Shown here: one piece after another, positions 420 to 28,556 of the stretch
How positions within the stretch are numbered: the first letter of the stretch is position 1
Layout of the letters: the number at the start of each line of letters is the position of its first letter
From: an uncultured Muribaculaceae bacterium
Lineage (GTDB): Bacteria > Pseudomonadota > Alphaproteobacteria > Rs-D84
Assembly (NCBI GenBank): GCA_965231035.1
Contig: OZ246409.1
Span: 571,101 to 603,100 of the forward strand
DNA: 32,000 bases
Reading direction: 5' to 3'
The notes under the pieces: model-generated
What the model was told of the DNA's origin: nothing
What the model saw: the letters and a program-made list of their open reading frames with translations, nothing else
Databases searched by the model: none
Translations under genes and position numbers: made by a program

Positions 420-1425
420 AATTTATATGTACTTTTTATTGTTAGGTTTGTGGTCTTTGCCTGCATCCGCGTATGAACATAATTTTGGCAGATATGGGTT
501 CAAGCTTACTGGTTATGGAACTGTTGGTGCAATTGAACCAGATTTCAAAAAAGCTTATTTTATGGATGATTGGCTGGTTCGAACACAGATCAATTATGCT
601 TTGAAATCAAATATAACAGTGGGGTTTGTTTATTCAATCGACGAACTGGCGGTATACCAAGATAAGTATTCCCGTGATACTTTTTTATTTATCGAAGATG
701 CAAACAGGGGCCGTATAGAACTGGGTATGACCGATTCAATTGCAACCAAACTGGGGGTTGGATTACCAGATGTCGGCGGATTAAGAATAAATGATAATCC
801 AATATTTTATAAAAGATTGGAACCAACAGGACCGGTTATTTCAAATACTACAATGACCAGCGGTCGGTACGATTTGCGTGCGAACTTTGTTTCTGTTCCA
901 ACGCGTCCTTGGCAATTTGGGGCATCTGTTGCTGGATTATCACCAAAATATAATTATGCCACGGATGTTGGGGTAAAATATCGTGATCCGAACGGTAAAA
1001 CAAAAAATGCATTTTCGATGGGTGCGTCCTTTATAGATTCGCCAGAAAACTTTCAAACCGAAGTTTTTGCACCATCAGTCACAGCAGATTGGCGTGCACA
1101 AATATCAACAGGATTTAATTTGCAATACAACAGCTGGATATGGGGAATATCGTTACGTGGAATTTACGACAGAAACCCGATTGGCGTTCCTGGGGACGGC
1201 TTGATTGCAGGAACAGGGATCAGTTATGACCTTTTGAATTATACAGTGTCAGCATCATATATTTTATCTGATACAGGTATATGGAATGATGCACCTAATT
1301 ATATATCAAATACTGGGGTGTTATCTTTCAGATATAAATACAGCGAAGATGTTGACGGTTGGATTTCAACCGGATTATCTGCTGGGTTGCCATTTATGTC
1401 TGGTGGAATCAGAATGAAGTTTTAA
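406..1425 (+). CDS. Outer-membrane beta-barrel / porin-like protein (family not recognised)
   Basis: The track start at 394 is GTG. The ATG at 406 is preceded by AAGGTGAGG (391-399) at good spacing. Signal peptide MKPYKIYMYFLLLGLWSLPASA|YEH. Alternating hydrophobic/polar strands rich in Y/G/N. C-terminal ...GGIRMKF ends in Phe, as is typical of OMPs. It overlaps the rpoH stop by 14 nt. Confidence 0.55.
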   Translation: MKPYKIYMYFLLLGLWSLPASAYEHNFGRYGFKLTGYGTVGAIEPDFKKAYFMDDWLVRTQINYALKSNITVGFVYSIDELAVYQDKYSRDTFLFIEDANRGRIELGMTDSIATKLGVGLPDVGGLRINDNPIFYKRLEPTGPVISNTTMTSGRYDLRANFVSVPTRPWQFGASVAGLSPKYNYATDVGVKYRDPNGKTKNAFSMGASFIDSPENFQTEVFAPSVTADWRAQISTGFNLQYNSWIWGISLRGIYDRNPIGVPGDGLIAGTGISYDLLNYTVSASYILSDTGIWNDAPNYISNTGVLSFRYKYSEDVDGWISTGLSAGLPFMSGGIRMKF

Positions 1426-1448
1426 AAAACCGCCATTTGGCGGTTTTT
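1424..1448. terminator. Bidirectional Rho-independent terminator between convergent genes
   Basis: aaaaaa-CCGCC-attt-GGCGG-ttttt: a GC stem flanked by an A-run and a T-run, so it can work on both strands. It lies between the OMP stop (1425) and the Yip1 stop (1453). Confidence 0.7.
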
Positions 1449-1452
1449 ATTT

Positions 1453-2049
1453 TTACAGCAAGCACGCAAGTGTTGCGCTGGTATTCTTTAACATAAACCA
1501 TCCAATACGATAATCTGTTACATAGATGATTACCATAAACAAGGCCAATACACCCATAACAATCATAACGTTGTGTTTCTTACCCTTCATGCAGTACAGG
1601 CTGATGTTATAGAACAAGAACAGGATATAGGCATCAACAATCAAACTGATGATCCAAACAGATGTACAGTTAAATGCCAAGGCATTCAAAACCAAAATTG
1701 CAGGGTATATAAAGAATACCGAAGCCAACCCCTTAATCGCGATTTCCCAATCACGTTCGCCACCTGTAATTTCTGAAACCAACATTAACAATCCGCCCAA
1801 GATAAACAACAAGGCAACAGCCAGCACAGGGACAATTATTATTGCAGTAAACACAGAACCAATTGTGATTGTGGCCCCGCCAATTAAACGCAACAGCAAA
1901 ACCAAACCGCCACCCAGCAATCCATACATAAATGCGCGCAGCATTGATTCTTCCAAGTTGCCATCAGCAACGATTTTTGTGAAATAACGTTTTGGGTCTG
2001 TCAAGATATCCCAAATGTGTTTGGTCCAACGTTTGATTTTGTCTTTCAT
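1453..2049 (-). CDS. Yip1-domain polytopic inner-membrane protein
   Basis: ATG with GGAG 8 nt upstream. A hydrophilic N-terminus (..WDILTDPKRYFTKI..) is followed by about five hydrophobic helices, which is the Yip1/DUF1282-like architecture. Confidence 0.6.
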   Translation of the reverse strand: MKDKIKRWTKHIWDILTDPKRYFTKIVADGNLEESMLRAFMYGLLGGGLVLLLRLIGGATITIGSVFTAIIIVPVLAVALLFILGGLLMLVSEITGGERDWEIAIKGLASVFFIYPAILVLNALAFNCTSVWIISLIVDAYILFLFYNISLYCMKGKKHNVMIVMGVLALFMVIIYVTDYRIGWFMLKNTSATLACLL

Positions 2050-2116
2050 ATTTTATACTCCCATTTGATTATTTGTATTTTTACTCTATAATTGTAAAAA
2101 ATCAAGAGTTTAAATT

Positions 2117-3439
2117 ATGATAAAAATCGCAATCGCAGGACGCCCAAATACTGGTAAATCCACATTGTTTAATGCTTTGACGTGTACGCGTGATGCGCTG
2201 GTTCACGATCGCCCTGGGGTTACGCGTGACGTTATCGAGGGAAATATACCAAAAACTGATTGGCAAATATTTGATACGGCCGGTTTGGAAAAAGCAAAAA
2301 CAGGCATTGGTGCTGATTCTACAAATATGGCGATTTCGGCTGTTGAAAAGGCGAATGCAGTATTGTTTGTGGTTGATGGTCGCACAGGTCTGATGCCCGA
2401 AGACTTGGATTGGGCAAGGCAAATAAAAAGAAAAACCAAGGCCAAGGTTTTATTACTGGTAAACAAATCCGAATCCGAAAGAAGAATTTCGAATGTACAT
2501 GATTTTTACAAACTGGGTTTTGGCGAACCTGTTATGATTTCTGCAGAACACAAACGTGGCTTTGATAAAATTTATGAATTTTTGGAATCTGTTGGCGGTA
2601 AAACCGATATTGAAACACAAAAAGAAGTTAAATTAAAAGTCGCAATACTGGGTCAACCGAATGTTGGAAAGTCAACATTTGTGAACAAGGTTTTGGGTGA
2701 AAATAGACAGATTGTCAAAGATGAACCAGGAATAACACGCGATACGGTAAAAATTCCAACAAACTTTTATGGTCGCGATATTGTTTTAATGGATACAGCT
2801 GGACTTCGTCGTAAAGCAGGGGTCATAGATGATGTTGAAACTTTATCTGCTTTGAAATCTTTGGACGCGATTACAAATGCCAATATTGTGATACTGATTG
2901 TTGATTCAACCAAAGATATTGAAAATCAGTCATTGGGGATTGCTTCACGCGTTTATGATGCTGGCAAGATTTTATGTGTCGCTTTGAACAAATGGGATTT
3001 GGTGGACGAAGCAGAACGTGAAGACAAATTGTTAAAATTGAAACACCAGTTCAAGAATTCTTTTCACCAGATTATAAAACCTCTTATTTTGCCAGTTTCT
3101 GCAGAAAAGGGCACAGGTGTTAAAAATATGTTCAAACGAATTTACGAGCTGTGGGATATTTCAAATTCGCGTGCACCTACCAGTTTGATAAATAGAACCT
3201 TGGAAAGATTACTTACTGAACGTCAACCCCCAATGTCTCGTTTGAAACGCCCTATGAAAATAAAATTCGCAGCTCAGGTTGGAATACATCCGATTCACAT
3301 AGTTATAAATACCGGTGGTGCATCTGATATTCCAGAATCTTATACACGTTATTTACGTCGTGGATTGGCAATAGCATTGAATTGGGAACAGTTACCTATT
3401 GTAATTGAATACAAAAAATCAGAAAATCCGTTTGACTGA
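2117..3439 (+). CDS. der: Ribosome-associated GTPase Der/EngA (tandem GTPase domains plus KH-like C-terminus)
   Basis: There are two G domains: GRPNTGKST...DTAGL...NKSE and GQPNVGKST...DTAGLRRK...NKWD. The C-terminal part is IKFAAQVGIHPIHIVINTGG...YTRYLRRGL. Confidence 0.95.
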   Translation: MIKIAIAGRPNTGKSTLFNALTCTRDALVHDRPGVTRDVIEGNIPKTDWQIFDTAGLEKAKTGIGADSTNMAISAVEKANAVLFVVDGRTGLMPEDLDWARQIKRKTKAKVLLLVNKSESERRISNVHDFYKLGFGEPVMISAEHKRGFDKIYEFLESVGGKTDIETQKEVKLKVAILGQPNVGKSTFVNKVLGENRQIVKDEPGITRDTVKIPTNFYGRDIVLMDTAGLRRKAGVIDDVETLSALKSLDAITNANIVILIVDSTKDIENQSLGIASRVYDAGKILCVALNKWDLVDEAEREDKLLKLKHQFKNSFHQIIKPLILPVSAEKGTGVKNMFKRIYELWDISNSRAPTSLINRTLERLLTERQPPMSRLKRPMKIKFAAQVGIHPIHIVINTGGASDIPESYTRYLRRGLAIALNWEQLPIVIEYKKSENPFD

Positions 3440-3486
3440 TAGTGGAAACTTTTGGTCACGATTTGCTTAGGGCCGCAGATCAAAAA

Positions 3487-3521
3487 ATAAAGGCGTAGAT
3501 AACTCTACGCCTTTATTTTTA
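3487..3521. terminator. Bidirectional Rho-independent terminator
   Basis: Perfect 12-bp stem ataaaggcgtag / ctacgcctttat with loop ataact, an A-run upstream and a T-run downstream. It lies between the convergent der and lipoprotein genes. Confidence 0.65.
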
Positions 3522-3532
3522 TAACAATGTTT

Positions 3533-4285
3533 TTACCATGTCGGGGCGTGATCGCCTTCTTTTACAATTGGTTCTTCATCTTCCCATACACTTAAACCAG
3601 TTTTCAAATCTGTCAGCGTCAGTTGTAAATAATATTCAACACGTGTATCTGTGCTGGAGAACCAACCAGATTTCAAATCCAAGTTACGTTGAATCATTTT
3701 ACCAGACAAAGACATATTTGGTGCAATCAGAGTTCCTTTGCCAACAATAGTATTTGCTGCATATTCATCATTGCCACGAGTTGCCCGAACTTGGTGTGTT
3801 GTTTCATCTTCAGCAACATTTTTTTCATATTCCACTTCTGCATAGCCTTTTGCTTTTGCTTTCAGTTGTGCTGACTGTCCTGCTAATCCTACGCTGGCAG
3901 CTTCCATTTCAGAGGATACAGGAACATATCCAGTTGCTTTTTCAGTTTTGTTTTGAAAACCAGTTGATATTTGGGCACGACCAGAATTTATAAGAGTTTT
4001 ACGGATTTTCTTTACCAAAATATCTGTATCAAATCTTTGCATTGTATCATTTTCGACATTTGCTATAACAATAACAGGGTCTTTTACACGACCAAAAGCA
4101 CCACTCTTTAACATACTTGTTGTCATATCTTCGGCAGTCTTGGTCCAGTCGCGATATTCTAATTCCATCACGTTTTGCATTCCTTTGACTTCGGCCTGGT
4201 TATTTAAATCAACAACATTTGTTTCGCCACAGCCAGCAAGCCAAAGCAGAGAACAAATTGTCGATAACATATATATTTTTTTCAT
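3533..4285 (-). CDS. LpoB-like (COG3417-type, PBP-activator fold) outer-membrane lipoprotein
   Basis: Lipobox LWLAG|C, with GGAG 6 nt upstream of the ATG. The core VIVIANVENDTMQRFDTDILVKKIRKTLINSGRAQI and the C-terminus APNMSLSGKMIQRNL....VEYYLQLTLTDLKTGLSVWEDE match my memory of the LpoB/YcfM domain pattern (..v..i.N.T....dt..l...i...L..sG ... dy.LsGkI......Y.l.l.l.d..tG..vW). Confidence 0.6.
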   Translation of the reverse strand: MKKIYMLSTICSLLWLAGCGETNVVDLNNQAEVKGMQNVMELEYRDWTKTAEDMTTSMLKSGAFGRVKDPVIVIANVENDTMQRFDTDILVKKIRKTLINSGRAQISTGFQNKTEKATGYVPVSSEMEAASVGLAGQSAQLKAKAKGYAEVEYEKNVAEDETTHQVRATRGNDEYAANTIVGKGTLIAPNMSLSGKMIQRNLDLKSGWFSSTDTRVEYYLQLTLTDLKTGLSVWEDEEPIVKEGDHAPTW

Positions 4286-4297
4286 TTTTTCTCCTTT

Positions 4298-5566
4298 TTA
4301 TTTTAATTTTATAACTTTTTCATCAAAACTATTTTGACCCAGTCGGACATAAACAAGATTATTTCCAGCAGGTATCTTTATACTTGAAACCAGGTTACCA
4401 CCAGATTTTAATTCAATCAAGCCGCTTTTATTCTTTGAAACACGCAGTAAATAAATCTTTTTAGGTAATGTTGCCCAAGTTCTGACTTCGGCGCTGGTAC
4501 TTGCAACAGAATAAATTGTCGATGCTAATCCTAATAAACCAGCGTATTGACTGTCAGAATTATACATTGTTGCCTGTAGAACAGCCTTGGAAACAGCAGA
4601 AGTCCAAGCGCGTAAAGCTTCATTTATTCTATATTCATTATATTCTGTCATAAACATTGCATCAACATCTGCCAGCACCTGCGCAGAGTCAATATATATA
4701 GTTTCGTTAAAAACCAATGGTTCAGATATTGCAATTGAAACAACACTGACGCCGTTACCAACAGACCATGGCATATCAAATCTGTCTTCTATTAATTTTG
4801 GTGCAAATCCAGATTCTATGAATACCCAAGATGTATTTGATGGTATTTTACCAGCCTTGGCCATATTTAAATCTTCGGAAACAAAAGAATTGCTTGGGAC
4901 CATACCATTTGCGCGCTTTAAATATGTCTTTGCATCATTAAAATCACCGTTGTCCAAAGCATAAATCCCAGCCAAGTAAGTCAAAGCAGGATTCATAATA
5001 TCTGTAAATGCAGCCCAACCCGCATTTTCATTTCTTAATCTGTTTGCCAGCTCGTTATTATCAGAAGATTTTTCTTGGTTATCTTTTATCAGTGCTTCGT
5101 ATTCGCGACTCATTCTTTGTTGACGGTCATAAGACTGATTTATAATTACGCGCGCATCTGCGAATCTCCCATCAGCCAGTGCATCCCATATCTGATAATA
5201 AGATACAAATAATGCATCCATCATATAAGGACGATAATCATTGGACATATTTCCGCCCAGTAAAATTCCAATTTCACGTGTTAAATCGCCACCAGTTAAA
5301 TCAAGATTTCTTTTATTAAATTCTTCGTACGCGCTGTCGCTTTCAGAAAATTTATTTTGGTGAAAAAGGCTGTCTGCAGAGATTAAAATTTCCAAATTAT
5401 CTTGGTCTGGTATACTGGATTTACCAGAAAATTTTTCAGCAGCATCAGAATAATTATTGAAATCATAAGAATTACGAACATCATCAAGTTTTAAAATCAT
5501 ATTTTGGGCACAACCAGATAACAATAACCCAGAAGCGATACAAAAAGCAAAAATACGAAATTTCAT
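4298..5566 (-). CDS. Large lipoprotein with a helical/TPR-like N-half (COG3014-like, function unknown)
   Basis: Lipobox LLLSG|C. The N-terminal half is helical-repeat-like (..YYQIWDALADGRFADARVIINQSY.., ..YLAGIYALDNGDFNDAKTYLKRA..). The C-terminal half is beta-rich. It lies 12 nt upstream of the LpoB-like gene. Confidence 0.5.
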   Translation of the reverse strand: MKFRIFAFCIASGLLLSGCAQNMILKLDDVRNSYDFNNYSDAAEKFSGKSSIPDQDNLEILISADSLFHQNKFSESDSAYEEFNKRNLDLTGGDLTREIGILLGGNMSNDYRPYMMDALFVSYYQIWDALADGRFADARVIINQSYDRQQRMSREYEALIKDNQEKSSDNNELANRLRNENAGWAAFTDIMNPALTYLAGIYALDNGDFNDAKTYLKRANGMVPSNSFVSEDLNMAKAGKIPSNTSWVFIESGFAPKLIEDRFDMPWSVGNGVSVVSIAISEPLVFNETIYIDSAQVLADVDAMFMTEYNEYRINEALRAWTSAVSKAVLQATMYNSDSQYAGLLGLASTIYSVASTSAEVRTWATLPKKIYLLRVSKNKSGLIELKSGGNLVSSIKIPAGNNLVYVRLGQNSFDEKVIKLK

Positions 5567-5573
5567 GCAATAA

Positions 5574-5602
5574 ACTGTAATTTATATTTTATAAATCGTC
5601 AA
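5574..5602 (-). promoter_or_regulatory. Candidate sigma-70 promoter for the lipoprotein pair (TTGACG-17 nt-TACAGT)
   Basis: The minus strand reads TTGACG-ATTTATAAAATATAAAT-TACAGT-TTATTGC-ATG. There is no Shine-Dalgarno, and the -10 ends 7 nt before the ATG at 5566, which implies a leaderless or near-leaderless mRNA. Confidence 0.3.
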
Positions 5603-5608
5603 TCTTAA

Positions 5609-7855
5609 TTATTTAGACACGGTTTCCAAGTACTCTTTGCCAACAGTGTCTAATATTTTTATTTCTTTTGTTTTTGGATTTAGAACTTTTGGTGTTCCGC
5701 CATATCCCATAGCCGCATGATGTAATGGTATCAAGAATTCTGGTAAAGGCGAACTTTCACCCATTTCCATAAATTTCTTCAATTTTTCATCTTTCCAGGC
5801 AGGTTGGTGATCTGCTTCGATTGGTCGGTTATAATATCCTTGGAATATTACGATTTGTTTTTTAGGACTTAACTTCATAATATCCATTTCGCTGTAAAGA
5901 ATGTCATGACCAGTTTCTTCTGTAACTTTGCCTTTGTCATCCTTCTTTTCTTTAATTTTCATCTTATAACCCATCATTTCCGAGAATCGCTTTGCGGTAT
6001 CAGGGTCGTTTTGACGCAATACAATTTTCGCAGCTGTTGTTGAAACAATGGTAGCTGCAGCATCTGCACCATATTTTTCCTGAATCTGGTGCAGGTCTTG
6101 ACCAATAATCAAATATGAAATCTGCTGACCGCGACCCAAATCTGGACCCTGGATAACGGCCTGTAATTTTTGCATTTTTGGCATCTCATCCAGAATGAAT
6201 AATACAGGAAATGTTCCAAGCTTTTGCCCGTTCAAAACATTACCAGGCGGGTTTGCCAAAAGGAATTTTGACATCAATTCAATAAATATTCCGGTGATCG
6301 GATTTAATGCCTCGGCATCAACCATGTTAATTGAAAGATAAACTGTAACCGGCTTAATATTTCCATCACGTGGGTCTTTCAATCCGCGCAAATCCGAAAA
6401 ATGAAAATCAGAATGACTAGTACGATTTCTAACGGCTGCGTTTCGGAAAATTCCAAGTCCCGCCATAACGGTAGATAAGATAGACCCACGTTCCTTGTCT
6501 GGTGTATTTGCCAATTGTGTTAATTCCAAAATAGCACGGTGTGAATATGCATACTGACGGGCTTCATTAACAGCGTCCAAGAACAAATCCTTCATTGGAT
6601 CCGCCATCATAACCATCTGGTCACCTTGTTTACGACGGTTTTCAAGGTCTTCGGCAATTCTTAACTGGTTTGCGTTTAACCAATCAAGAATCATGGAAAG
6701 TGAAGCCTCCTTTCCGTGCCAGACATCTGGAATATTTGCCCATGTTCCAATATGAACATAATTCATTACATTTAATTCACCAGAACGCAACCGTGCAACC
6801 GCAGCATATGCGTTTGGGTCATTAATCATAGATATATAATAATCATTCAGAACAGTTGCATCTTCTTGATCAAAAGTTCCGTTTGATAATCTGGTATAGA
6901 AATAATCATCAGCCTTGGCGCGTTCAATTTTTGAAATCATAAACTGAATCAAGCCAGATAACGCAGCGCGACCAGAAATTGTCCAGTGCGGATCAGCCGA
7001 GCTGGCTGTTTTTTCAGCAATCAAAACACTGCAAATTGTATCAACATACAAATCGCGTTGTTCTTGATTAAAAGGTACATGCTCTGGTGACAGTGGATTC
7101 CAGCTGGGATAATAAATTCCGTTTGCAGGATCATCTTGTCCCGCCCAATTCATAATAAATACCGGACCCACAGTTGCACGATACGCAGATGATGATTGTT
7201 TCAATTCAGGCTTTGGATCGTTAATAATCATTGATACATTGTTACATTCAAAAATTGTGGGTAATACGACACCCTGGGTTTTACCAGTTCCCGGAGGTGC
7301 CACACACAAAGTAGAAAGACATTCGTTCATCATCAAAGGCTTTTTCTTGAAATATCCCAGAACCATCATAAAACCATTTAATAAGCCCATTTTTTCAATA
7401 TCAGCCTTGGTTGCCTTGTTTGAAGATTTTTCATCAAATTTATCATTTCCATAAGGATTAAATTCACTAACAAGTGTCGAATCAACCAAGATGTGATAAA
7501 CAATAAATGGAATCAAAGGGGTAATGCAAGCAATGTCAGTTTGCATTACAGAGCGTGTCAACCATGCAGGAATTTCCGCTAAAATTGATAAACCACCAGA
7601 AAAAAGCATATTTTGAAAGAATAAAGAAATCCATTTCCATGTTGCGGGTGACCAGCCGTATCTCCAAATATGTTCAACTGCAAAAGATAAACCAAAAGCA
7701 ACCGCACAAGACAACCAAATACCAGAAGCCCAACGCATTTTCCAAAATAATTGCGCCATAGGCTTTTGCAAATGTTCTTTGTACGAACTGGATTTGAAAA
7801 TATTCAAACCTTTGGATTCGCCACCTGCTGATAAAATCTTGAACTTGTCTACCAT
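5609..7855 (-). CDS. virD4: Type IV secretion coupling protein (T4CP), TraG/VirD4 family ATPase
   Basis: N-terminal TM helices. Walker A LCVAPPGTGKTQGVVLPTIF, compared with VirD4 ApTrSGKGvg.ViPnLL. IINDPKPELKQ, compared with DiKGE. Walker B FILDEMPKMQKL. IIGQDLHQIQEKYG, compared with the Qs..QL...YG motif. The track start at 7918 is TTG and would overlap rsmE, so I prefer the ATG at 7855 (MVDKFKIL...). Confidence 0.85.
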   Translation of the reverse strand: MVDKFKILSAGGESKGLNIFKSSSYKEHLQKPMAQLFWKMRWASGIWLSCAVAFGLSFAVEHIWRYGWSPATWKWISLFFQNMLFSGGLSILAEIPAWLTRSVMQTDIACITPLIPFIVYHILVDSTLVSEFNPYGNDKFDEKSSNKATKADIEKMGLLNGFMMVLGYFKKKPLMMNECLSTLCVAPPGTGKTQGVVLPTIFECNNVSMIINDPKPELKQSSSAYRATVGPVFIMNWAGQDDPANGIYYPSWNPLSPEHVPFNQEQRDLYVDTICSVLIAEKTASSADPHWTISGRAALSGLIQFMISKIERAKADDYFYTRLSNGTFDQEDATVLNDYYISMINDPNAYAAVARLRSGELNVMNYVHIGTWANIPDVWHGKEASLSMILDWLNANQLRIAEDLENRRKQGDQMVMMADPMKDLFLDAVNEARQYAYSHRAILELTQLANTPDKERGSILSTVMAGLGIFRNAAVRNRTSHSDFHFSDLRGLKDPRDGNIKPVTVYLSINMVDAEALNPITGIFIELMSKFLLANPPGNVLNGQKLGTFPVLFILDEMPKMQKLQAVIQGPDLGRGQQISYLIIGQDLHQIQEKYGADAAATIVSTTAAKIVLRQNDPDTAKRFSEMMGYKMKIKEKKDDKGKVTEETGHDILYSEMDIMKLSPKKQIVIFQGYYNRPIEADHQPAWKDEKLKKFMEMGESSPLPEFLIPLHHAAMGYGGTPKVLNPKTKEIKILDTVGKEYLETVSK

Positions 7856-7864
7856 TGTGATAAC

Positions 7865-7873
7865 ATTATACCA
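7865..7873 (-). promoter_or_regulatory. Candidate extended -10 promoter (TGGTATAAT) for the T4CP gene
   Basis: The minus strand reads TGGTATAAT-GTTATCACA-ATG. This fits TGnTATAAT perfectly, sits 9 nt from the ATG at 7855, and has no SD, which suggests a leaderless transcript. Confidence 0.35.
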
Positions 7874-7902
7874 GAATAATGGTCGAAAATTAAGAATTAA
7901 GA

Positions 7903-8556
7903 ATGAAAAATATACCAAGAATTTTTATAAATGAAAAAATCGAGCCTGGTAAGAAAATATCAGTCGAAAAGGATGTTTTGCATTACCTTAAAAAAGTTAT
8001 GCGAACTGATAAGTGCCTGATTTTCAATAATGGCGAAGAATTTTACGCAAACTTGAATGAGGATAACAAGTATTTGATTGCGGATAAAAAAACAGAACAT
8101 TCTGACCCCAGCAATGAGATAACTTTTTATTTTGCGCCAATAAAGAAAACAGATGAAATGTTAAATATGGTAACCCAAATGGGTGTGAAGCGCTTGCAAC
8201 CTGTTATAACAGACAGAACTGTTGCACATCATATTAACTGGGACAGAATTAAAAAAATTATAATCGAGGCATCCGAACAATCAAATAGAAACAGTGTTCC
8301 AGAATTATTATCACCAATAAACTTTTCAGAATTGAGTAAGAAAGATTTGTATTTTGCTGATGAACGTGCTGCGTATGATGTTGAGATTAAAAATTCGGCA
8401 AATAGGGCAAAGAATATATTAATTGGTCCCGAAGGTGGTTTTTCAGAATCAGAATTCGCGGCATTGGATTCTTCTGGTGCGGTTGGAATTTCTTTGGGTA
8501 AAACTATTTTGCGTGCTGAAACTGCTGCTGTGGCTGCGCTGGCAAAGATTATATAA
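7903..8556 (+). CDS. rsmE: 16S rRNA (uracil1498-N3)-methyltransferase RsmE
   Basis: N-terminal PUA-like start (RIFINEKIEPGKKISVEKDVLHYLKKVMR) and the C-terminal SPOUT knot motif ILIGPEGGFSESE...ISLGKTILRAETAAVAAL. Confidence 0.9.
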   Translation: MKNIPRIFINEKIEPGKKISVEKDVLHYLKKVMRTDKCLIFNNGEEFYANLNEDNKYLIADKKTEHSDPSNEITFYFAPIKKTDEMLNMVTQMGVKRLQPVITDRTVAHHINWDRIKKIIIEASEQSNRNSVPELLSPINFSELSKKDLYFADERAAYDVEIKNSANRAKNILIGPEGGFSESEFAALDSSGAVGISLGKTILRAETAAVAALAKII

Positions 8557-10613: not shown

Positions 10614-13600
10614 TTATTCCATTTCAGTGCTGATTATATCACCGTACATACCGACTTCGTCTGCGCCGATATAACAACGGATATGATTACCAACATCGTT
10701 CATCCAAGATTCCTGTTCGGAATCGAATTTTGCACGATTACCCGCTTTGATAACTTGCGCGGTACCAACACCCAGCGCAATACCACCAACAACAGCCCCA
10801 GCACCATTAACAATCTTACGAGTGTTACTATCATTTGATATTGGTTTGTCAGTTGCACCACAAAGGTTCAGGTTCCCTTGCATTTCGCTAATAGCGCTAT
10901 CTATATGAGTCCCCTTGTTTGCATTGTCTGCGCTTGTAGATACAATTTTATATGTATACCCCAACGTTGAAACACGTTCAGATACAACAGCATCTTGTTT
11001 TTGATCGCTATTACTTTTGGCATCTTGTAGTTCTTTGATAGAAGCCATAAATTTATCTTCGCATGCTTTTGCTTCTTTATTGGATTTAGTAACTTCTTTT
11101 GTATCATCTGTTCCCAATAATCCACCAAGGCTGCCTTTTTGTAGATAATTTGTAGCAATGCCACCACCTACGGCACCCAATACTGACGTACCAGCAGTCA
11201 ACCATCTTTGACCTTTGGTCATTTTACCGCTAGATGATGTACCAGTCTCTCGGGCTGCAACTTTGTTTGCAATTGCTTCCAGTTCACTGCCTGGGATCCA
11301 GCTGCCGCAAGTGAATGAATCACCGGCTGCATAGTATGCTGTGCTCCAATCTTTACCAGAATTAATTGCATCTTGGATATCTTTGTCATCAGATTGCAAT
11401 GTGATGCGGATTCTGCAGAAGCTTCCGTACAAATCGTTGCTGGCAGAGAATTGACTGTCTTTTAGACCATTAGACGCATAGCTTGCTGGAACCTTTGCAC
11501 TTTTCATTTTTACCCACATATATGTGCTGCCATTTTCACGAGCACCAATGATACCGCCTTCGTTATCGGACAAGCACATATTTTGTTGTTTTGTCAGCTT
11601 GGCATTATATTTTGCCTGAGCTTCGATTTCCAAATCATAGATAAGGTCGTTGAATACAGAACGTTCTGATTGTGCAATATTATATGCATTTTCAGATACC
11701 ATTTTTGGATATACATATCTTCCATTAGAGCTGTCGCAACGTCCAGCATCACCAGTTCCGTTTGCACCTGTTGTGCACAGCAGATTTCCATCAGCGTCAG
11801 TATCTTGGATGTTACCACTGGATGTGGCAGAATATGTTCCAGAATCCAACCATCCTGTACGAGTATCTGTTACACCAGTACCCCAAGAGTCTGCTGTGCT
11901 GGGCCCTGTTGTACGACGAGCAGATTCAGCCTTGATATGTTCTTCGCATGTTGGGTTGTTCTTGACACTGTTCATGCATAAACCAATTATAATTGTGTGA
12001 TCCAGAACACCACCGACCTTGTTCATACTTTTATCAAATGAAGCACTGCCAGTGTTTGTCAGAACAGAATAGACGTCTGTACGGTTGCGATAGCAATTAG
12101 AATAATCTTCACCGCACATTGATTTTACACAACCTGTGGCGATTGCCTGGCACTGTCTTTTCATGTTATCCAAAGAAGATTGATTATAAGACAATGACAG
12201 CTTTGAATTCAAAGCAGCAACTGCACCAACCGCATCAGGATTCGTTGCAGTTGTATCATTTGCGGCTGTAAACAAGATATCAAACAAACTGCCCGACAAA
12301 TAGCTTATAATACCAGTTGCAGATTGAAATGTTACAACCGAGTACTTGCAGTATGTATCGTTATTTACAACAGCTTCGCATCCATATTTTATATCAGCCA
12401 AAGTTGTTGGATTTGTAACACCCTTGATAGTATTATCAGAATCAAATGCAGATGCATAGCATGCCGCACCGCTGCCTTGACCACATGTACGCATCGCACA
12501 AGATGTAATTGTATCTTGGCACTTCTGTTTTGTCTTTTTATCAAATGTTGTAATTAAATCATCAATTTTGGACTTCATAGAATCATTCATACGTGAAGAA
12601 TAAGCATCTGAATAAATAGTATCTTTGTTATCTTCATCTTGAAGTTGAGAATTTGTTGGCATAACACCATTTCCAACGAATGTAGCATAGCAGAACTTGT
12701 TTGCACCAATTGTATCATAACAAGAATCTTTCAAGAAACCTGCAATTTCAGATTTATTAACTGCACCAGAATCTGTTACATAAGGAGTTGTAGTAGTCGT
12801 TGGATTTGCAACAAAAGTATTTCCAGCTGCATCAACCAATGTGTGAGATGTTCCTTCCTTGCATTTATAAGGATTTTGTGCGCAAGCATTCAAAATACAT
12901 TGGTCTGCAACCTTGTAACAAGTTGCAACTGCATTAACAGCTGCCAAAGCAGCGCCTTCGGAAATCATAACACCCAGACGGCTGGTTGCTGTTGGATTAG
13001 CAGCAGTATTAGTTGAACCAAACAATTCGGTTTTGCCACCATTTTCGCATCTTGCAAGTGTTGATTCACAGAAAATCTTTTGTGTTTGAAATTCGGCATT
13101 GCTGGTACATAATTCGAAATCTGAACCGCAAACATCATCTTTTTTCAAGCAACTGGTATATTTTTTAACACAAGTGCTGGTGTCATAGCGATTGTTAACG
13201 TATGCCGCACCAATCAGTTGACCCAGAACACTGCCACTAGTTGGATAAACATATTCACCAGCAGAATTTTTATTAGAAAAGGCCGTTTGATTGCTTGTTC
13301 CAAAAAGGCTGTTTACACCGGAGGTTTTGCACTGCATCAAAGTGCTGGCGCATTGTGGTTTTTTGCCAAAGAACAGTGTATTATTGGTGCATTCTTCAAA
13401 GTTTGCACCGCAAACATCGCCACCTTTCATACATGCTGTGTATGCATCAATACAATCTTTGTCGGCAAGCATCGATACAGCGGTATTACCAGATGTAGAC
13501 GATGTGGAATTACCACTAATCTGAGCAGTTATTGTAGGCATTCTGGACACTGCACTTCCAAGAACACTTGGACGTGCGGTCGAAGCAGAAGCCGCAGGAA

Positions 13601-13649
13601 TAACCGCCAAAACAGACATAAAACCGAATACTTTTTTAAGAAAAATCAT
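10614..13649 (-). CDS. Giant secreted Cys-rich protein (1011 aa), function unknown; C-terminal Gly-zipper-like hydrophobic segments
   Basis: ATG with GGAGGAAG upstream. Signal peptide MIFLKKVFGFMSVLAVIPAASA|S. About 38 Cys by my count, arranged in recurring C-x6-C(-x4-C) patterns. Two Gly-rich hydrophobic stretches lie near the C-terminus (WLTAGTSVLGAVGGGIATNYL; IVNGAGAVVGGIALGVGTAQVI). I recognised no known domain. Confidence 0.8.
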   Translation of the reverse strand: MIFLKKVFGFMSVLAVIPAASASTARPSVLGSAVSRMPTITAQISGNSTSSTSGNTAVSMLADKDCIDAYTACMKGGDVCGANFEECTNNTLFFGKKPQCASTLMQCKTSGVNSLFGTSNQTAFSNKNSAGEYVYPTSGSVLGQLIGAAYVNNRYDTSTCVKKYTSCLKKDDVCGSDFELCTSNAEFQTQKIFCESTLARCENGGKTELFGSTNTAANPTATSRLGVMISEGAALAAVNAVATCYKVADQCILNACAQNPYKCKEGTSHTLVDAAGNTFVANPTTTTTPYVTDSGAVNKSEIAGFLKDSCYDTIGANKFCYATFVGNGVMPTNSQLQDEDNKDTIYSDAYSSRMNDSMKSKIDDLITTFDKKTKQKCQDTITSCAMRTCGQGSGAACYASAFDSDNTIKGVTNPTTLADIKYGCEAVVNNDTYCKYSVVTFQSATGIISYLSGSLFDILFTAANDTTATNPDAVGAVAALNSKLSLSYNQSSLDNMKRQCQAIATGCVKSMCGEDYSNCYRNRTDVYSVLTNTGSASFDKSMNKVGGVLDHTIIIGLCMNSVKNNPTCEEHIKAESARRTTGPSTADSWGTGVTDTRTGWLDSGTYSATSSGNIQDTDADGNLLCTTGANGTGDAGRCDSSNGRYVYPKMVSENAYNIAQSERSVFNDLIYDLEIEAQAKYNAKLTKQQNMCLSDNEGGIIGARENGSTYMWVKMKSAKVPASYASNGLKDSQFSASNDLYGSFCRIRITLQSDDKDIQDAINSGKDWSTAYYAAGDSFTCGSWIPGSELEAIANKVAARETGTSSSGKMTKGQRWLTAGTSVLGAVGGGIATNYLQKGSLGGLLGTDDTKEVTKSNKEAKACEDKFMASIKELQDAKSNSDQKQDAVVSERVSTLGYTYKIVSTSADNANKGTHIDSAISEMQGNLNLCGATDKPISNDSNTRKIVNGAGAVVGGIALGVGTAQVIKAGNRAKFDSEQESWMNDVGNHIRCYIGADEVGMYGDIISTEME

Positions 13650-15173: not shown

Positions 15174-15674
15174 TTATTTTTTAAATTCTATGGTTATTTT
15201 TTTCACCCCAGTAACAGGTGAAGATAAAATATAAGAAAATGGTGCGGTATTTCCACTTTCTAAAAGTGTTGCGGGTGACATAACCTTTTGTTGGGTTAAA
15301 ATGTTTCCCTGGTCATCATGTGAAATAATTATTAAATCTGGAACACCATAAATATCTTTGGATTTATTTTTTACAAAACCGTTAACAACAAAGTGCTGAA
15401 CGCCAGCTTCGTCAGTAATTGTATTTATTTCAGAAATCTTTGCAGTTAAAGGATTTTTTTTAATATCATTTGAATTGTATTGAGCAATCACAACAAAAGT
15501 AAAAACAATTGCGGCCAATAATGCGCATATCGAGGCAATAAAAACCAAAAAGGAATTTTTGCGTCTGGGTTGTTTTACATTCCAAACATGTCCGCAAACA
15601 ATACATTGAACAGGCGAAGTCGGTGCCGAGTTCAAAGTATATTCAGTCTTACAAAATTCACATACGGTTTTCAT
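15174..15674 (-). CDS. MJ0042-type zinc-ribbon / single TM / DUF3426-like protein (ZitP-like)
   Basis: N-terminal CxxC...CxxC ribbon MKTVCEFCKTEYTLNSAPTSPVQCIVCGHVWNV. A basic linker and a TM helix (FLVFIASICALLAAIVFTFVVIA). A beta-rich periplasmic domain ends in ..GVKKITIEFKK. This is the same architecture as Caulobacter ZitP. Confidence 0.7.
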   Translation of the reverse strand: MKTVCEFCKTEYTLNSAPTSPVQCIVCGHVWNVKQPRRKNSFLVFIASICALLAAIVFTFVVIAQYNSNDIKKNPLTAKISEINTITDEAGVQHFVVNGFVKNKSKDIYGVPDLIIISHDDQGNILTQQKVMSPATLLESGNTAPFSYILSSPVTGVKKITIEFKK

Positions 15675-15694
15675 TATCAGATTTATACCATAAT

Positions 15695-17032
15695 TTAATT
15701 CAAATTCAATTGGTTATATTTTAACTTAACTTTTTTCTGGATTTCAGAAATTGCATTCATAAAATCTGAAGCGGTTGCATTATCGTTTGTAACAACAGAA
15801 TTAAATGATTGACTACTGGTTGTTTTGGTTGCTGCTTCTTTTTTTACAATCAATGGTGCCATACGGCTTAACTCGGCTAATGATATATCAGAAAGGTTAG
15901 CTGTGCTAGTGTTTGCATCCCAAAAGTAATTAGAATCAGATGAATCTTCGATACGACTTTTTACAATCAATTTTGGGGTAACAGAGTTATCAAATCCAAT
16001 GGTAACAAACATAGCGGTCACATGTCCTGCAACCATATCAATTGTTTTATTAACTTTTAGAACTGTTGCATCCGAACCAGAAGGGTTTAAAACAGAAAAT
16101 CCAGATAAATTTAAATTATTTACCCACATATCATCGGTTGTAAAACTTGCAAACCTGGCAGAGTTTGCCAAAGTTAATATCCCCGATACATCCATACTTC
16201 TTGAATCTGAAGATAATGTTCCAGCAACAACAGCGTCCTTAATAGTAACTTTTTTATCCACAATTACTCTTTTCTGAAATGTCAGATTATCCGAAACAGA
16301 TTTCTCGGATTTTAAAATTTCTTCAAATTTTGCGGAGTCTGAATCAAGTAATTTTGTTTCAGTTATATTATGTCCAGCCAAATTCAAATCAGATTCCATA
16401 GTTGCATCTGTAGAGTTTTCAGACGGTATTCGCCATAAATATTCATTTGTATCCAGTTTTGTATTAGTTGTTCCAACAATACCATGCAGACCTTCAATTC
16501 CAAAATCAACAGCATTACCGTGCCATGTTCCAAATGCACCAAATGCTTTGCCTTTTTCAACAAAACCCATTTTATTATTTCCCAAGTTTATAATTTCCCG
16601 TGTTCTTATTGGTGAAATATTTTTATCGTTTAAAACAATAATTCCTTGTAATGTTGAATGACCATTATTATCACTGGATTTTAATATTCTGATTTGCAGT
16701 TTATCGCCATATTGTTTTAATGAATCTTCGCTGATTCCATAGTCTGCAAGATCTGAAACCTCGACCCTGGTTATATTTTTACCAACAGTTTTAAGTAATT
16801 CTTTTTTGTTTGTATTAATATATTTTTCCAAAGCAGATTGAACAGTTTCAATTTGTTTTTCTATGGCGATATTTTCTGAACGTTCAATACGTGATTTTTG
16901 AAAATTTATAATAAATGGCAAAACCACAGCCACCAATGCCAGGGTCAATAAAAGTTCAATCAACATTCCGCCACGTTCATTATTTTTGTTCAAGATGATT
17001 TTTTTTATTTTCATAAATTCTATTGCTTCCAT
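15695..17032 (-). CDS. Large prepilin-like protein C (445 aa): class III signal / pilin alpha-1 helix, PilV-like motif, repeat-rich C-terminal half
   Basis: N-terminus ...NKNNERG|GMLIELLLTLALVAVVLPFIINF has Gly at -1 and Glu at +5. Internal motif NEYLWRIPSENSTDATMESDLNLAGHNITE. The start is ATG at 17032 (13-nt overlap with the upstream gene) or ATG at 17014. Confidence 0.7.
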   Translation of the reverse strand: MEAIEFMKIKKIILNKNNERGGMLIELLLTLALVAVVLPFIINFQKSRIERSENIAIEKQIETVQSALEKYINTNKKELLKTVGKNITRVEVSDLADYGISEDSLKQYGDKLQIRILKSSDNNGHSTLQGIIVLNDKNISPIRTREIINLGNNKMGFVEKGKAFGAFGTWHGNAVDFGIEGLHGIVGTTNTKLDTNEYLWRIPSENSTDATMESDLNLAGHNITETKLLDSDSAKFEEILKSEKSVSDNLTFQKRVIVDKKVTIKDAVVAGTLSSDSRSMDVSGILTLANSARFASFTTDDMWVNNLNLSGFSVLNPSGSDATVLKVNKTIDMVAGHVTAMFVTIGFDNSVTPKLIVKSRIEDSSDSNYFWDANTSTANLSDISLAELSRMAPLIVKKEAATKTTSSQSFNSVVTNDNATASDFMNAISEIQKKVKLKYNQLNLN

Positions 17033-18234
17033 CCGGTTTTAAGTATTTTGCTGAAATCTGAATCGCTTGGCATATTTGGAATTGTTGCACGGTAAAGTCC
17101 AAGTTCTGAAAACTTTGGGGGTGTAGATGACGGAAAAGACCAACTTCCGATTTTAATAGGTGGTGTGGCAGACATCATTAATTCACCAGAAACTGTCAAT
17201 CCATAGTTGTTATAAAAATTAATCTGGTCAGAATACAAGAAAGATGTATATATTGAATGCGCAATTATTCCTGAAAATCCGGAAATAGTTTTTGTTGAAT
17301 CAGATTTCACGGTTAAGTTGTTACCAATGTTTAAAGAATTATTAACAGTTGCCTTGTCTGTAATAATATTACCATTAGTAGAAAAACCAGAATCGTTTAA
17401 TTTCTTTGCAGAAATATTTCTGAATCCTGAAATATCATCGCTTACCCGCATAGAACCAATATTTACATTGCCGGCATCCATATTTGCGCCACTGGAAAAA
17501 TATACAGATCCCGCGTTAACATTTTTTGATTCCATAAATGCAGCTGACAAATCTTTTATTTTTACAGATTCAGCAGCCAAAGTACCAATATTGAAAATAT
17601 TGAATTTTCCCATATTCAAATTTCGCTGCATAACATTAAAATCATCTTTTCCAGAAGTGCTGCGATGTAAATATTTTGAAACATCGTCGCCCACAAAGCT
17701 GTAATTCACACGATAAACCAGATCACCTGGTTTGAAATCTGGGGCGGTCACAGCCCAAGATGTTCCATATGCAACACCATCTTTGTCTACGCTGGCGGCG
17801 TCCATGCCAATTTGCTTTACAACCTTAGCTGTGTGTAATGCATCTCCACCTAAATCAAAAGCCAGATAAACATCAGTTACAATTGAACCGTTAACCTGGT
17901 ATTTATCAACAAAGCCGGCATGTGCTGAATCTGTAATTTTATTAAGTTCATCCGCATTCAGTTTTATTTGTGCAATATTAGGCCATTTATCTTGATTAAC
18001 CCGTACAAAGTTAAGAACAGGATCGTGCAAACTGATAACTTGCTTTGCAATAGATATGTCACGAATCTGTTGTGAAGTTTCGGAAATTTGATTATAAATA
18101 AATGGACTTAAGATTGCTATGATTCCCAGCACCAATAATATTTCCAATATGCTGGCGCCACGCTGTTCGGTATTTCTGACAGTGTTAAAATTTTCAGAAA
18201 AAATATTTTCTTTAATCACAATCACTTTTTCCAT
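17020..18234 (-). CDS. Large prepilin-like protein B (404 aa)
   Basis: N-terminus ...RNTEQRG|ASILEILLVLGIIAILSPFIYNQ has Glu at +5 and a 26-aa leader from the only in-frame ATG. Internal motif SKYLHRSTSGKDDFNVMQRNLNMGKFNIFNIG. The C-terminal half has N/S/G-rich short repeats (NVNAGSVYFSSGANMDAGNVNIGSMRVSDDISG...). It overlaps the upstream gene by 23 nt. Confidence 0.7.
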   Translation of the reverse strand: MEKVIVIKENIFSENFNTVRNTEQRGASILEILLVLGIIAILSPFIYNQISETSQQIRDISIAKQVISLHDPVLNFVRVNQDKWPNIAQIKLNADELNKITDSAHAGFVDKYQVNGSIVTDVYLAFDLGGDALHTAKVVKQIGMDAASVDKDGVAYGTSWAVTAPDFKPGDLVYRVNYSFVGDDVSKYLHRSTSGKDDFNVMQRNLNMGKFNIFNIGTLAAESVKIKDLSAAFMESKNVNAGSVYFSSGANMDAGNVNIGSMRVSDDISGFRNISAKKLNDSGFSTNGNIITDKATVNNSLNIGNNLTVKSDSTKTISGFSGIIAHSIYTSFLYSDQINFYNNYGLTVSGELMMSATPPIKIGSWSFPSSTPPKFSELGLYRATIPNMPSDSDFSKILKTGWKQ

Positions 18235-19567
18235 CCAACAAACATTGTTTTACATTAATTCTTTTTTCCAATCTTTCCCAATAAACATACTGGCAAATAA
18301 TATTTTGTGATAAAGATTTAGAATTATAAACACCGTTAAGGCCAGAAATTATAGATTTGCAAGTAACAGTAGAAGAATCATCTTCGGTTGGTTTTGATAA
18401 TATTTTGAAATTGTCATTGTTTATACTGTCGACCAGAACGTCTGGCAAAACAGATGTTCCCGCTGGTCTGATATCCAAAATAACCGCACCAGTTTTACCG
18501 TTTGCCAACGCTGTTGATGTTTGGTCACGTAATGTAATATTTGCAGCATATATTTTATCAACTTCTACACCGCTTTCCGAGCTGTATTCTAATGAGTCTG
18601 GATTTATAAAAACATCTTGTCCACGTGCAGCATTTAAAAATGAAGATAATTCCAAGCGTTCTACTGACAAATTTATATTATCCAGAATCATATTTCCTTG
18701 GACTTTCCAATTTGTTGGACCTGTGAAACTGGTTTTGCCAGCAGTCATAGAAAAATCATAAACCGATGCAGAACCAGATGTGAAATTTCCAGAATCACCA
18801 AACCTGGAAATTGTTTTTGCAGACAAACTGTCCAATCCAAGTGTTCCACGTGTTATTGATAATGCAGCTTCCCCGGGATTACTTTGAAATATGGCTTTGT
18901 CCGCAGATAAATTTTCTATAACGCTACGAATTTTTTTACCACCTTCTGAACCAAATAGAGAAATATTATTAGCCTGTGTTGATTCAAATTCAGCATTTCT
19001 TCCAAATATTGAAAAAATATTTTCAAGTTTAAATCCACCCATATTCAATTCCGACAAAAAGCCGTTTGAGTCTGGTTTTTTTTCTTTACGTTTCACAATA
19101 TCAGAAAAACTTTCATCCAACGGAATAATCATATAAACATTTCCGTCTTTTTCAGATGCATAAAATCCCAATCTGCGAACAATCTCGGCCCGTTCAATAC
19201 CAGAAAGTTTTCCACCAGATATTTCAAGATATGCAGAAGTTGAATCCTTGGTTTTATCAATCACAAGGGATATTTTTTGACCAAAAGCAGTACGCGGGAT
19301 AAATCCCAAAGGCAAACCATACGGTTCCAAGGTATCTGTAAAATTATTTCCAGAAAGAATAGAAGTGTTGTATTCCAAAGAATCTAAATTTTCACGAATA
19401 TAAATTCCAGCAGCAGTTTGTGCCGTTTCTATTTGATTGGACACAGCATACATTTGAGAATCTTTATCGCGAATAGCCAGCTTTTGCGTAAAAAACGGAA
19501 TGAACGCAATAATTAATGCCAAAGCCAGCAAGGCTTGTAATAAAAAGTTTCCGCCCTGCCTTTGCAC
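18212..19567 (-). CDS. Large prepilin-like protein A (about 451 aa from the preferred GTG start), lacking Glu+5
   Basis: The track start at 19636 is TTG with no SD. AGGAGG (19574-19579) followed 6 nt later by GTG (19567) gives MQRQG|GNFLLQALLALALIIAFIPFF. Internal motif NGFLSELNMGGFKLENIF. Four Cys lie in the last about 50 aa (..VTCKS...NIICQ...KQCLLDGKSDCD). Confidence 0.65.
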   Translation of the reverse strand: MQRQGGNFLLQALLALALIIAFIPFFTQKLAIRDKDSQMYAVSNQIETAQTAAGIYIRENLDSLEYNTSILSGNNFTDTLEPYGLPLGFIPRTAFGQKISLVIDKTKDSTSAYLEISGGKLSGIERAEIVRRLGFYASEKDGNVYMIIPLDESFSDIVKRKEKKPDSNGFLSELNMGGFKLENIFSIFGRNAEFESTQANNISLFGSEGGKKIRSVIENLSADKAIFQSNPGEAALSITRGTLGLDSLSAKTISRFGDSGNFTSGSASVYDFSMTAGKTSFTGPTNWKVQGNMILDNINLSVERLELSSFLNAARGQDVFINPDSLEYSSESGVEVDKIYAANITLRDQTSTALANGKTGAVILDIRPAGTSVLPDVLVDSINNDNFKILSKPTEDDSSTVTCKSIISGLNGVYNSKSLSQNIICQYVYWERLEKRINVKQCLLDGKSDCD

Positions 19568-19726
19568 AAGCACCCTCCTACAAACCAATACTTTACTAAA
19601 ACCGCTTTTTTGGTGCAATGAAAAAAAATATTGCAATCGGTTTTCAGATGATTTATTATCAAGCAGTTGATTAGAACGATAGTGATTTATTTGCTATCCA
19701 AATTTACCTCCAATTAAAGATAAAAT

Positions 19727-20020: not shown

Positions 20021-20087
20021 TTTTTTCAACTTTAATTCTTGAAATCTGATGTGCATTTGCTATGCTCTTCCCAAAGGAAGTTTTTGA

Positions 20088-28432: not shown

Positions 28433-28556
28433 ACAACAAATCATATCACAAAAATTGAAATATTAAAAACCAAAAATGAAAACTTGTGTTAAGTTATCGA
28501 ATTGTTTATACTTTATTCGATGACCTGGCACTTAACCAGAATAGAAAGGAAATACA

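Follow-up and report, generated by a model that had tools for sequence, protein, structure and literature searches.

The stretch of DNA analysed here, referred to below as the window, is a 32-kb chromosomal segment (GC ~37%) from an alphaproteobacterium of the gut, Candidatus Enterousia (order Rs-D84), whose genome is ~0.85 Mb in size. Our subject is a gene of this window that encodes a VirD4-type type IV coupling protein (T4CP), together with the two lipoprotein genes that lie behind it. The window also carries a series of housekeeping genes, namely those for a sigma factor, two pseudouridine synthases, 16S rRNA and tRNA-Ile as well as der, rsmE, dnaX, skp, lpxD and fabZ. Enterousia and the rest of the order Rs-D84 are widespread gut bacteria; Enterousia genomes measure 0.75-1.0 Mb, have no tricarboxylic acid cycle, respiratory chain or standard transporters, and their owners are thought to rely on partner organisms (PMC12306168). 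The main text of that genome paper does not mention a secretion system. The features of the locus are the following:

7903 to 8556: rsmE, flanking gene, divergent from the T4CP gene
7856 to 7902: divergent intergenic region between virD4 and rsmE, 47 nt, read from the sequence
5609 to 7855, minus strand: virD4-type T4CP, 748 aa (Pfam, Walker motifs, fold, conservation)
4298 to 5566, minus strand: 422-aa lipoprotein, here called lip422, with a TPR-like N-terminal and a beta/alpha C-terminal domain (lipobox LLSGC, AlphaFold model, Azospirillum homologue)
3533 to 4285, minus strand: LpoB-family lipoprotein, 250 aa, with an insertion of ~40 aa (PF13036, TIGR02722, lipobox WLAGC)
3482 to 3514, minus strand: terminator-like hairpin AAAGGCGTAGA-gtta-TCTACGCCTTT followed by a T-run, likewise read from the sequence
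2117 to 3439: der, flanking the three-gene unit

A preliminary description of the window had placed an intact T4CP gene between rsmE and der, with two lipoprotein genes following at 42 and 12 nt. The analysis confirms this arrangement. The three genes are genuine and share the minus strand, lip422 beginning 42 nt downstream of the T4CP gene and the LpoB-like gene 12 nt further on. The open reading frame (ORF) of the T4CP (5609-7918) opens at a TTG codon and is longer than the 748-aa protein. The start is almost certainly the ATG at 7855, judging from the database cluster P0001 and from the N-termini of relatives. An extended -10-like element, TGgTATAAT, is found at 7873-7865, 9 nt ahead of this ATG (a pattern match only), and a promoter-like pair of hexamers (5574-5602) is located inside the 42-nt gap between the T4CP gene and lip422. 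No terminator-like structure is present between the three genes; the hairpin and T-run at 3482-3514, which a consensus terminator scan did not list, close the unit. The T4CP, lip422 and LpoB-like genes are presumably co-transcribed.

The T4CP is recognised by three Pfam profiles, PF02534 (E 3.5e-45, 155.2 bits for a cut-off of 20.1), PF12696 (3.3e-19) and PF10412 (3.8e-18). Its scores are far under the NCBIfam equivalog cut-offs for VirD4, TraG and TraD, and it therefore belongs to none of these named subfamilies. In an alignment of 36 sequences, residues G189, G191 and K192 of the Walker A motif APPGTGKT are invariant and T193 is conserved in at least 90% of the sequences. The Walker B residues D556 and E557 are also invariant in this alignment, the Glu being lost in relatives beyond ~35% identity. 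The AlphaFold model (pLDDT 79) shows four N-terminal helices (residues 30-128), a nucleotide-binding domain whose strands start at residue 163, and an all-alpha region at ~264-478. Fold comparison of the model retrieved Cagbeta of Helicobacter pylori (Cag5; 8dol, E 7.5e-20) and TrwB of R388 (E ~5e-13), with TM-scores of ~0.65-0.7 on the target. The family profile compared with solved structures gave Cagbeta (2.9e-11), TrwB (2.6e-3) and DotL (0.01), whereas the single sequence compared with PDB sequences gave nothing useful. The protein thus combines three traits of the T4CP family: the PF02534 profile, a P-loop NTPase with Walker A and B motifs, and a membrane anchor joined to a nucleotide-binding domain with an all-alpha insert. 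Cagbeta and TrwB have the nucleotide-binding domain and the all-alpha domain in common with the window protein. However, they are only 12-14% identical to it, and the window protein differs by a longer, four-helix N-terminal membrane region and by the large size and distinctive character of its all-alpha insert, in which motifs such as A-x-A-x-D-Y-F (KANDYF or RANDYF in most cases) are invariant.

Close homologues of the T4CP, 76-88% identical, number in the hundreds in gut metagenomes, and cluster P0001 is carried on a contig of 848,746 bp that is probably near a whole genome. A scan of species-representative genomes yielded 80 loci (L005-L084) whose T4CP is 66-85% identical to that of the window. 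The Enterousia set comprises 84 loci in total, and a second set of 84 loci (L085-L168) represents a sister clade of gut alphaproteobacteria. Loci were compared by tblastn of the window proteins followed by ORF calling and clustering. The source records of L005-L084 are labelled Candidatus Enterousia or uncultured gut Alphaproteobacteria or Proteobacteria, except for a few generic or mis-binned ones. Records labelled Bacteroides fragilis (L031), Lachnospiraceae (P0011) and Lactobacillales (P0428) carry Enterousia-type or related alphaproteobacterial T4CP loci and are probably mis-binned or mislabelled.

The T4CP gene is present beside rsmE in all 84 Enterousia loci, and the divergent junction between the TPR333-rluB-rsmE block and the T4CP gene is retained in essentially every one of them. 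Median identity to the window across these loci is 72.6% for the T4CP, 74.1% for Der, 62.9% for RluB and 58.3% for RsmE. The T4CP gene is therefore a strongly constrained core gene, conserved about as well as der and well above rluB and rsmE. These results bear on the possibility that it was left behind by an integrated conjugative element or a plasmid. Its closest relatives with an annotated context do reside on plasmids. However, the gene occupies a fixed site beside rsmE in every species, its base composition is that of its flanks, no integrase, relaxase or repeats are found nearby in the window, and the intact gene is strongly constrained throughout the genus and outside it. Given its fixed site, its flank-like composition and its conservation in the whole genus, we reject this origin as highly improbable. 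Elsewhere around the T4CP gene, gene order is heavily shuffled among L005-L084, in a few recurring blocks: der-mem198, c9-c10-sigma-porin and fabZ-lpxD-skp-ompA-pilin-dnaX.

Pfam scans of the window's large ORFs (at least ~95 aa) revealed no VirB, relaxase or integrase gene. A phmmer search of the six-frame translation with the full VirB2-B11 set, in which no relaxase was among the queries, matched the T4CP alone. The lack of VirB, relaxase and integrase genes claimed earlier for the 32 kb is thus borne out by the Pfam scans and, for VirB, by phmmer.

The partners of the T4CP were approached through its nearest relatives with an annotated context, which are encoded by plasmids of Sphingomonadales (29-32% identity, E 1e-77 to 9e-80). 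They include the T4CPs of Erythrobacter aureus (NZ_CP031358.1, 32% identity, E 9e-80) and Sphingosinicella (NZ_CP035502.1, 29% identity over 92% of the query, E 1e-77). On these plasmids a MobA/MobL relaxase gene precedes the operon virB2-B3-B4-B5-B6-(B7)-B8-B9-B10-B11-virD4, in which the T4CP gene comes last. The plasmid VirB proteins served as phmmer queries against the six-frame ORFs of 173 loci. Two loci were matched, L021 and L097.

L021 belongs to an Enterousia metagenome-assembled genome whose T4CP is 77% identical to that of the window. It carries a VirB3-like gene (1701-1997) immediately followed by virB4 (1998-4415). VirB4 was matched by phmmer (E 3.8e-124, 31% identity over 800 aa) and by PF03135 above its cut-off, and the virB3-virB4 pair also gave a Pfam match to PF05101 (2.7e-4). 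The pair lies 5.6 kb from the T4CP block, has the local GC content, and is located between ychF and c116, a gene whose family is found in other Enterousia loci; an Rfam search of L021 positions 1-2000 gave no match. L097 belongs to the sister clade, and its T4CP is ~48% identical to that of the window. Here, ~6 kb from the T4CP gene, genes for a first VirB8 (VirB8'), a 71-aa VirB7-like lipoprotein, a second VirB8 and a VirB9/CagX homologue follow each other on one strand (869-4092, minus). The 71-aa lipoprotein is homologous to the gene found at the VirB7 position of the plasmids, and the VirB9/CagX homologue ends in a SPOR (peptidoglycan-binding) domain. The gene after virB9 probably encodes the N-terminus of VirB10, as judged by its position and by eye, no search having matched it. 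The vir genes are therefore met in separate places: virD4 alone, virB3-B4 in L021, and virB8'-B7-B8-B9 with a probable virB10 in L097, the duplicated VirB8 being seen in the sister clade only. In 83 of the 84 Enterousia loci no virB gene is present within 10 kb of the T4CP gene.

VirB4, VirB8, VirB9 and the T4CP are each 30-34% identical to the same plasmid system. This equal divergence fits a common origin of these components and their co-inheritance from one ancestral system. The plasmid and gut systems differ in their arrangement: the Sphingomonadales plasmids have a contiguous operon with a MobA/MobL relaxase, a topoisomerase and a primase, whereas contiguous virB genes are absent from the window, and Pfam scans revealed no gene for a relaxase or a Dtr function there.

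Since virB genes occur in a congener and in the sister clade, at about the same distance from the plasmid system as the T4CP, we consider it likely that the gene at 5609-7855 encodes the VirD4 ATPase of a chromosomal, vertically inherited P-type (VirB/VirD4, Rickettsiales rvh-like) type IV secretion system (T4SS), the genes of which are dispersed and virD4 detached. A full VirB set would then be expected in the genome from which the window comes. The T4SS genes would be scattered into separate islets among housekeeping genes, in Enterousia and in its gut relatives. By analogy with its family, the T4CP would form a membrane-anchored hexamer that binds substrates, either protein effectors or DNA or both, and would hand them to a VirB6-B10 channel energised by VirB4 and VirB11 and encoded elsewhere in the genome. 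The two lipoproteins would represent a pre-existing envelope module that came to lie in the virD4 transcription unit of a compact genome, and this module would be dispensable for the T4CP.

Among the explanations offered in the preliminary description, it is the one of an even more fragmented T4SS that these data support, with virB islets among housekeeping genes 5.6-6 kb from virD4 in L021 and L097; partnership with the lipoproteins or with a pilin-like apparatus, the two other options, fared less well, as discussed below. Several observations nevertheless weigh against a dispersed T4SS. No virB gene is seen in the window's own genome, of which 32 kb out of ~850 kb is visible. The VirB evidence within Enterousia comes from one locus, L021, with virB3 and virB4 only. 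The T4CP gene is adjacent to virB11 in none of ~170 loci of this T4CP subfamily; this, and the operon of membrane proteins in which the sister-clade gene lies, imply that the T4CP may have lineage-specific partners. Finally, the lipoprotein pair adjoins the T4CP gene, with gaps of 0-80 nt, wherever it is present, which exceeds the chance expectation.

The arrangement recalls the rvh system of Rickettsiales, in which the vir genes form islets with a duplicated VirB8, a virB3-virB4 islet, and an islet of the order virB8a-virB7-virB8b-virB9b-virB10-virB11-virD4; T4CP genes frequently lie apart from the virB genes (PMC2653234). By this analogy, the gut system would likewise be a P-type T4SS that is inherited vertically on the chromosome, its islets dispersed among the housekeeping genes of a reduced alphaproteobacterial genome. 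The likeness extends to the islets themselves: L021 has the virB3-virB4 islet, and L097 has the duplicated VirB8 around a small VirB7-like lipoprotein, followed by virB9 and a probable virB10. This VirB8'-lipoprotein-VirB8 order matches that of Rickettsia islet C. In systems of the rvh type VirB4, VirB6 and VirB9 are duplicated as well. However, virD4 follows virB11 in Rickettsia, Anaplasma and Wolbachia, whereas it is detached and has its own neighbours in both gut clades. Moreover, the window host belongs to the order Rs-D84, not to Rickettsiales, and to the gut lumen community.

Since virD4 is conserved like the essential GTPase gene der, and relatives have virB genes in their genomes, a dispersed T4SS may belong to the core equipment of Enterousia and Rs-D84. 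It would offer a concrete handle on how these bacteria interact with other cells. For T4SS biology the gain would be incremental, another case of vir islets, here with virD4 detached. The novelty is accordingly modest: the pattern of an rvh-like dispersed T4SS is known, and what is new is the undescribed host lineage and the presence of an envelope lipoprotein module in the virD4 operon.

We then considered what this module is. The LpoB-like protein exceeds the TIGR02722 cut-off (116.9 bits for 110.55), matches PF13036 (9.8e-30) and has the lipobox WLAGC. It is 33% identical (E 8e-36) to the PGAP-annotated LpoB of Azospirillum, apart from the ~40-aa insertion in the window protein. For lip422, no family was found in Pfam or NCBIfam. 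In its model (pLDDT 82.4) the N-terminal half is TPR-like and the C-terminal half is of a beta/alpha type; a fold search of the PDB with this model returned weak generic TPR matches only, and none for the C-terminal domain. Neither lipoprotein matched the PDB sequences. LpoB is an activator of a class A penicillin-binding protein (PBP1B, through its UB2H domain); the one penicillin-binding protein gene seen, in the Enterousia locus L055, is of class B.

When plasmids and chromids were searched by tblastn, a single record, p1 of Azospirillum sp. TSH100, proved to encode homologues of the two lipoproteins. The operon, located among lipopolysaccharide genes, has the order lip422 homologue-YcfL-LpoB-DUF6844 (E6C72_RS31085-31095 for the TPR-lipoprotein/YcfL/LpoB genes), and no T4CP gene is nearby. 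Alignment of lip422 with the Azospirillum protein WP_109864956.1 by hhalign is full-length (probability 99.6%, E 2.2e-24, 393 aligned columns). A TPR-lipoprotein/LpoB pairing has also been described in Campylobacter (Cj0089-Cj0090-Cj0091) and in Helicobacter (HP0018 and the LpoB homologue HP1457), with a proposed role in the envelope and peptidoglycan (PMC11394524, PMC3100323). As in the window, the gene for a lipoprotein of ~420-450 aa with a TPR-like N-terminus lies shortly ahead of that for an LpoB-family lipoprotein in these operons. Homology to both window lipoproteins can be demonstrated for the Azospirillum proteins, whereas Cj0089 and HP0018 are likened to lip422 by description only. 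The window differs from these operons in having no YcfL between the genes, in the ~40-aa insertion of the LpoB-like protein, and in the location of the pair in a virD4 unit. Because of the Azospirillum homologues without a T4CP and of the Campylobacter and Helicobacter pairings, the lipoprotein pair is best regarded as an older envelope module and not as a T4CP-specific invention. A search of the literature on T4CPs together with LpoB, and on COG3014, found nothing relevant.

The distribution of the pair was determined in the Enterousia set. Of the 84 loci, 30 have it and 50 do not; its state could not be determined in the other 4, so that 80 loci are informative. When present, the pair always lies directly downstream of the T4CP gene, on the same strand, and LpoB is followed by one of several genes (der, fabZ, porin, mem198, c9 or c101). 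In four further places, reached from lip422 homologues, the pair again directly follows a T4CP gene. The synteny noticed in the window is therefore no one-off, the same unit recurring in 30 of the 80 informative species loci. On a neighbour-joining tree of the T4CP, the pair is found in the deepest branches and also, sporadically, in shallow ones; Fitch parsimony requires at least 8 changes between presence and absence. The simplest reading is that the pair is ancestral and was lost repeatedly, at least 8 times, while the T4CP stayed. Within the same loci, the lipoproteins are 51% and 59% identical for 68% in the T4CP, and thus evolve faster. Hidden Markov models (HMMs) of lip422 and LpoB found no matches in the sister-clade loci, around the T4CP gene.

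Could the T4CP and the two lipoproteins nevertheless form a functional unit, the pair having been recruited as an outer-membrane or periplasmic accessory, for example for peptidoglycan remodelling or anchoring? Accessories of this kind are found in other secretion systems, VirB7, DotK and VirB12 being examples. The single strand, the short gaps of 42 and 12 nt and the terminator after the third gene only would agree with this idea, as would the position of the pair directly after the T4CP gene in the 30 loci and the four further places although the next gene varies, and the absence from the window of the YcfL present in the Azospirillum operon. However, 50 of the 80 species have no pair and retain a T4CP that is equally conserved, with at least 8 changes over the tree; the pair is missing near the sister-clade T4CP according to the HMM searches; the module exists without a T4CP in Azospirillum; and the lipoproteins evolve much faster than the T4CP. 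Finally, the rsmE-rluB block, although unrelated, shows a tighter linkage to the T4CP gene than the pair does, so that adjacency in the Enterousia lineage is weak evidence of shared function. Since the pair is dispensable, is absent beside the sister-clade T4CP and is less tightly linked than the rsmE block, a necessary partnership is unlikely, and we regard the functional unit as a doubtful proposal. Of the earlier suggestion that the lipoproteins are partners of the T4CP, what stands is that the genes form one operon-like unit wherever the pair exists; the partnership itself is weakly supported at best, in view of the absence of the pair from 50 of 80 loci and from beside the sister-clade T4CP, and of the T4CP-free module of Azospirillum.

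The sister clade has its own T4CP neighbourhood. In the conserved operon of L085-L168, c11 precedes a low-complexity, variable protein and two membrane proteins that are paralogues of each other (c1); the T4CP comes next, and in many cases a 207-aa and a SUKH-like protein come after it. Apart from a weak SUKH_5 match on c27, the genes of this operon were assigned to no family by Pfam. HMMs of the sister-clade operon genes c1, c11, c21, c27, c33, c37 and c40 had no matches in the Enterousia loci, and HMMs of the large pilin-like proteins and of the Zn-ribbon protein encoded in the window had none in the sister-clade loci. These reciprocal searches indicate that Enterousia and the sister clade share no T4CP neighbours. 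The T4CP subfamily thus has lineage-specific neighbours.

As an observation apart, in L085 (5134-12172) and as a general pattern in L085-L168 c11 has ~320 aa, the low-complexity protein has 450-700 aa with a shared DIIKYMY..W motif, and the c1 paralogues have three transmembrane segments; these operon partners, which have no known family, could be DotM-like adaptors. The c21/c27 genes, found directly after the T4CP gene in many sister-clade loci (L115 12208-12831 and L107 12790-13257), encode the 207-aa protein, with an HNH-like motif seen by eye, and the SUKH_5/SMI1-like protein (6.5e-5). The two resemble a toxin/immunity pair, which hints at an interbacterial effector. In L088 (132-5872), podovirus-like genes for a capsid, a head-tail connector and a nozzle are located ~4 kb upstream of the T4CP gene and ~3 kb from its operon.

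A variant of the dispersed T4SS can be conceived, in which an ancient TPR-lipoprotein/LpoB module was captured into the virD4 operon as a facultative T4SS accessory of the periplasm or outer membrane, which might for instance direct the remodelling of peptidoglycan where secretion takes place, and in which the T4CP subfamily exchanged its linkage to virB11 for lineage-specific partner operons. We hold this elaboration to be unlikely. If true, the captured module and the swapped partners would belong to a secretion machine central to a partner-dependent gut lifestyle, the partner operons encoding lipoproteins in Enterousia and, in the sister clade, paired membrane proteins along with what may be a toxin/immunity pair.

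The pilin-like genes of the window were also considered as partners of the T4CP. Three large proteins (445, 404 and 474 aa) with class-III-signal-like N-termini are encoded at 15695-19636 and followed by a Zn-ribbon protein (15174-19636 altogether, minus strand). A small pilin-like gene (21676-22131) overlaps the start of a gene for an OmpA-like lipoprotein (region 21676-22811, plus strand). In the Enterousia locus L047, genes for a PilO(R64)-like protein, a T2SSE ATPase and a T2SSF platform protein are found at 16660-21368. The pilin-like genes and those of L047 make up a type IVb-pilus-like system that is unreported in PMC12306168. In L087 a pilin-like gene is located directly upstream of the T4CP gene. 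An HMM of the small pilin matched within 10 kb of the T4CP gene in 7 of the 84 sister-clade loci, which by a rough estimate is about the chance level, and the matches were probably driven by the shared hydrophobic N-terminus. The pilin-like genes named in the preliminary description are therefore real, but their role as a partner of the T4CP was rejected: Enterousia has a PilO-like protein, a T2SSE ATPase and a T2SSF protein of its own for the pilus, and the proximity of pilin and T4CP genes is near chance by the same rough estimate.

The same evidence bears on the proposal that the T4CP is a true orphan that acts independently of any T4SS, for instance as a DNA or protein translocase with the pilin-like apparatus or with other membrane partners. 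Such a role would account for the lack of virB genes within 10 kb in 83 of the 84 Enterousia loci, for the sister-clade operon with two paralogous membrane proteins of no known family, for the pilin-like gene next to the T4CP gene in L087 and for very strong conservation in a reduced genome. However, virB3 and virB4 in L021 and virB7-B10 in L097 indicate that channel genes persist in these lineages, the pilus has a dedicated ATPase and platform protein in Enterousia, and a pilin gene lies within 10 kb in those 7 sister loci only. Moreover, we know of no T4CP that acts without a VirB4-type partner. We therefore judge the true orphan improbable, and retain the dispersed T4SS as the likely context of the T4CP.

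Three further genes of the window, at 10614-13649, 23611-25623 and 27311-28444 (all minus strand), encode secreted cysteine-rich proteins of 1011, 670 and 377 aa that match no Pfam family. Their clusters in the 84 Enterousia loci have 1-3 members, which makes them nearly species-specific; they may be fast-evolving surface proteins.

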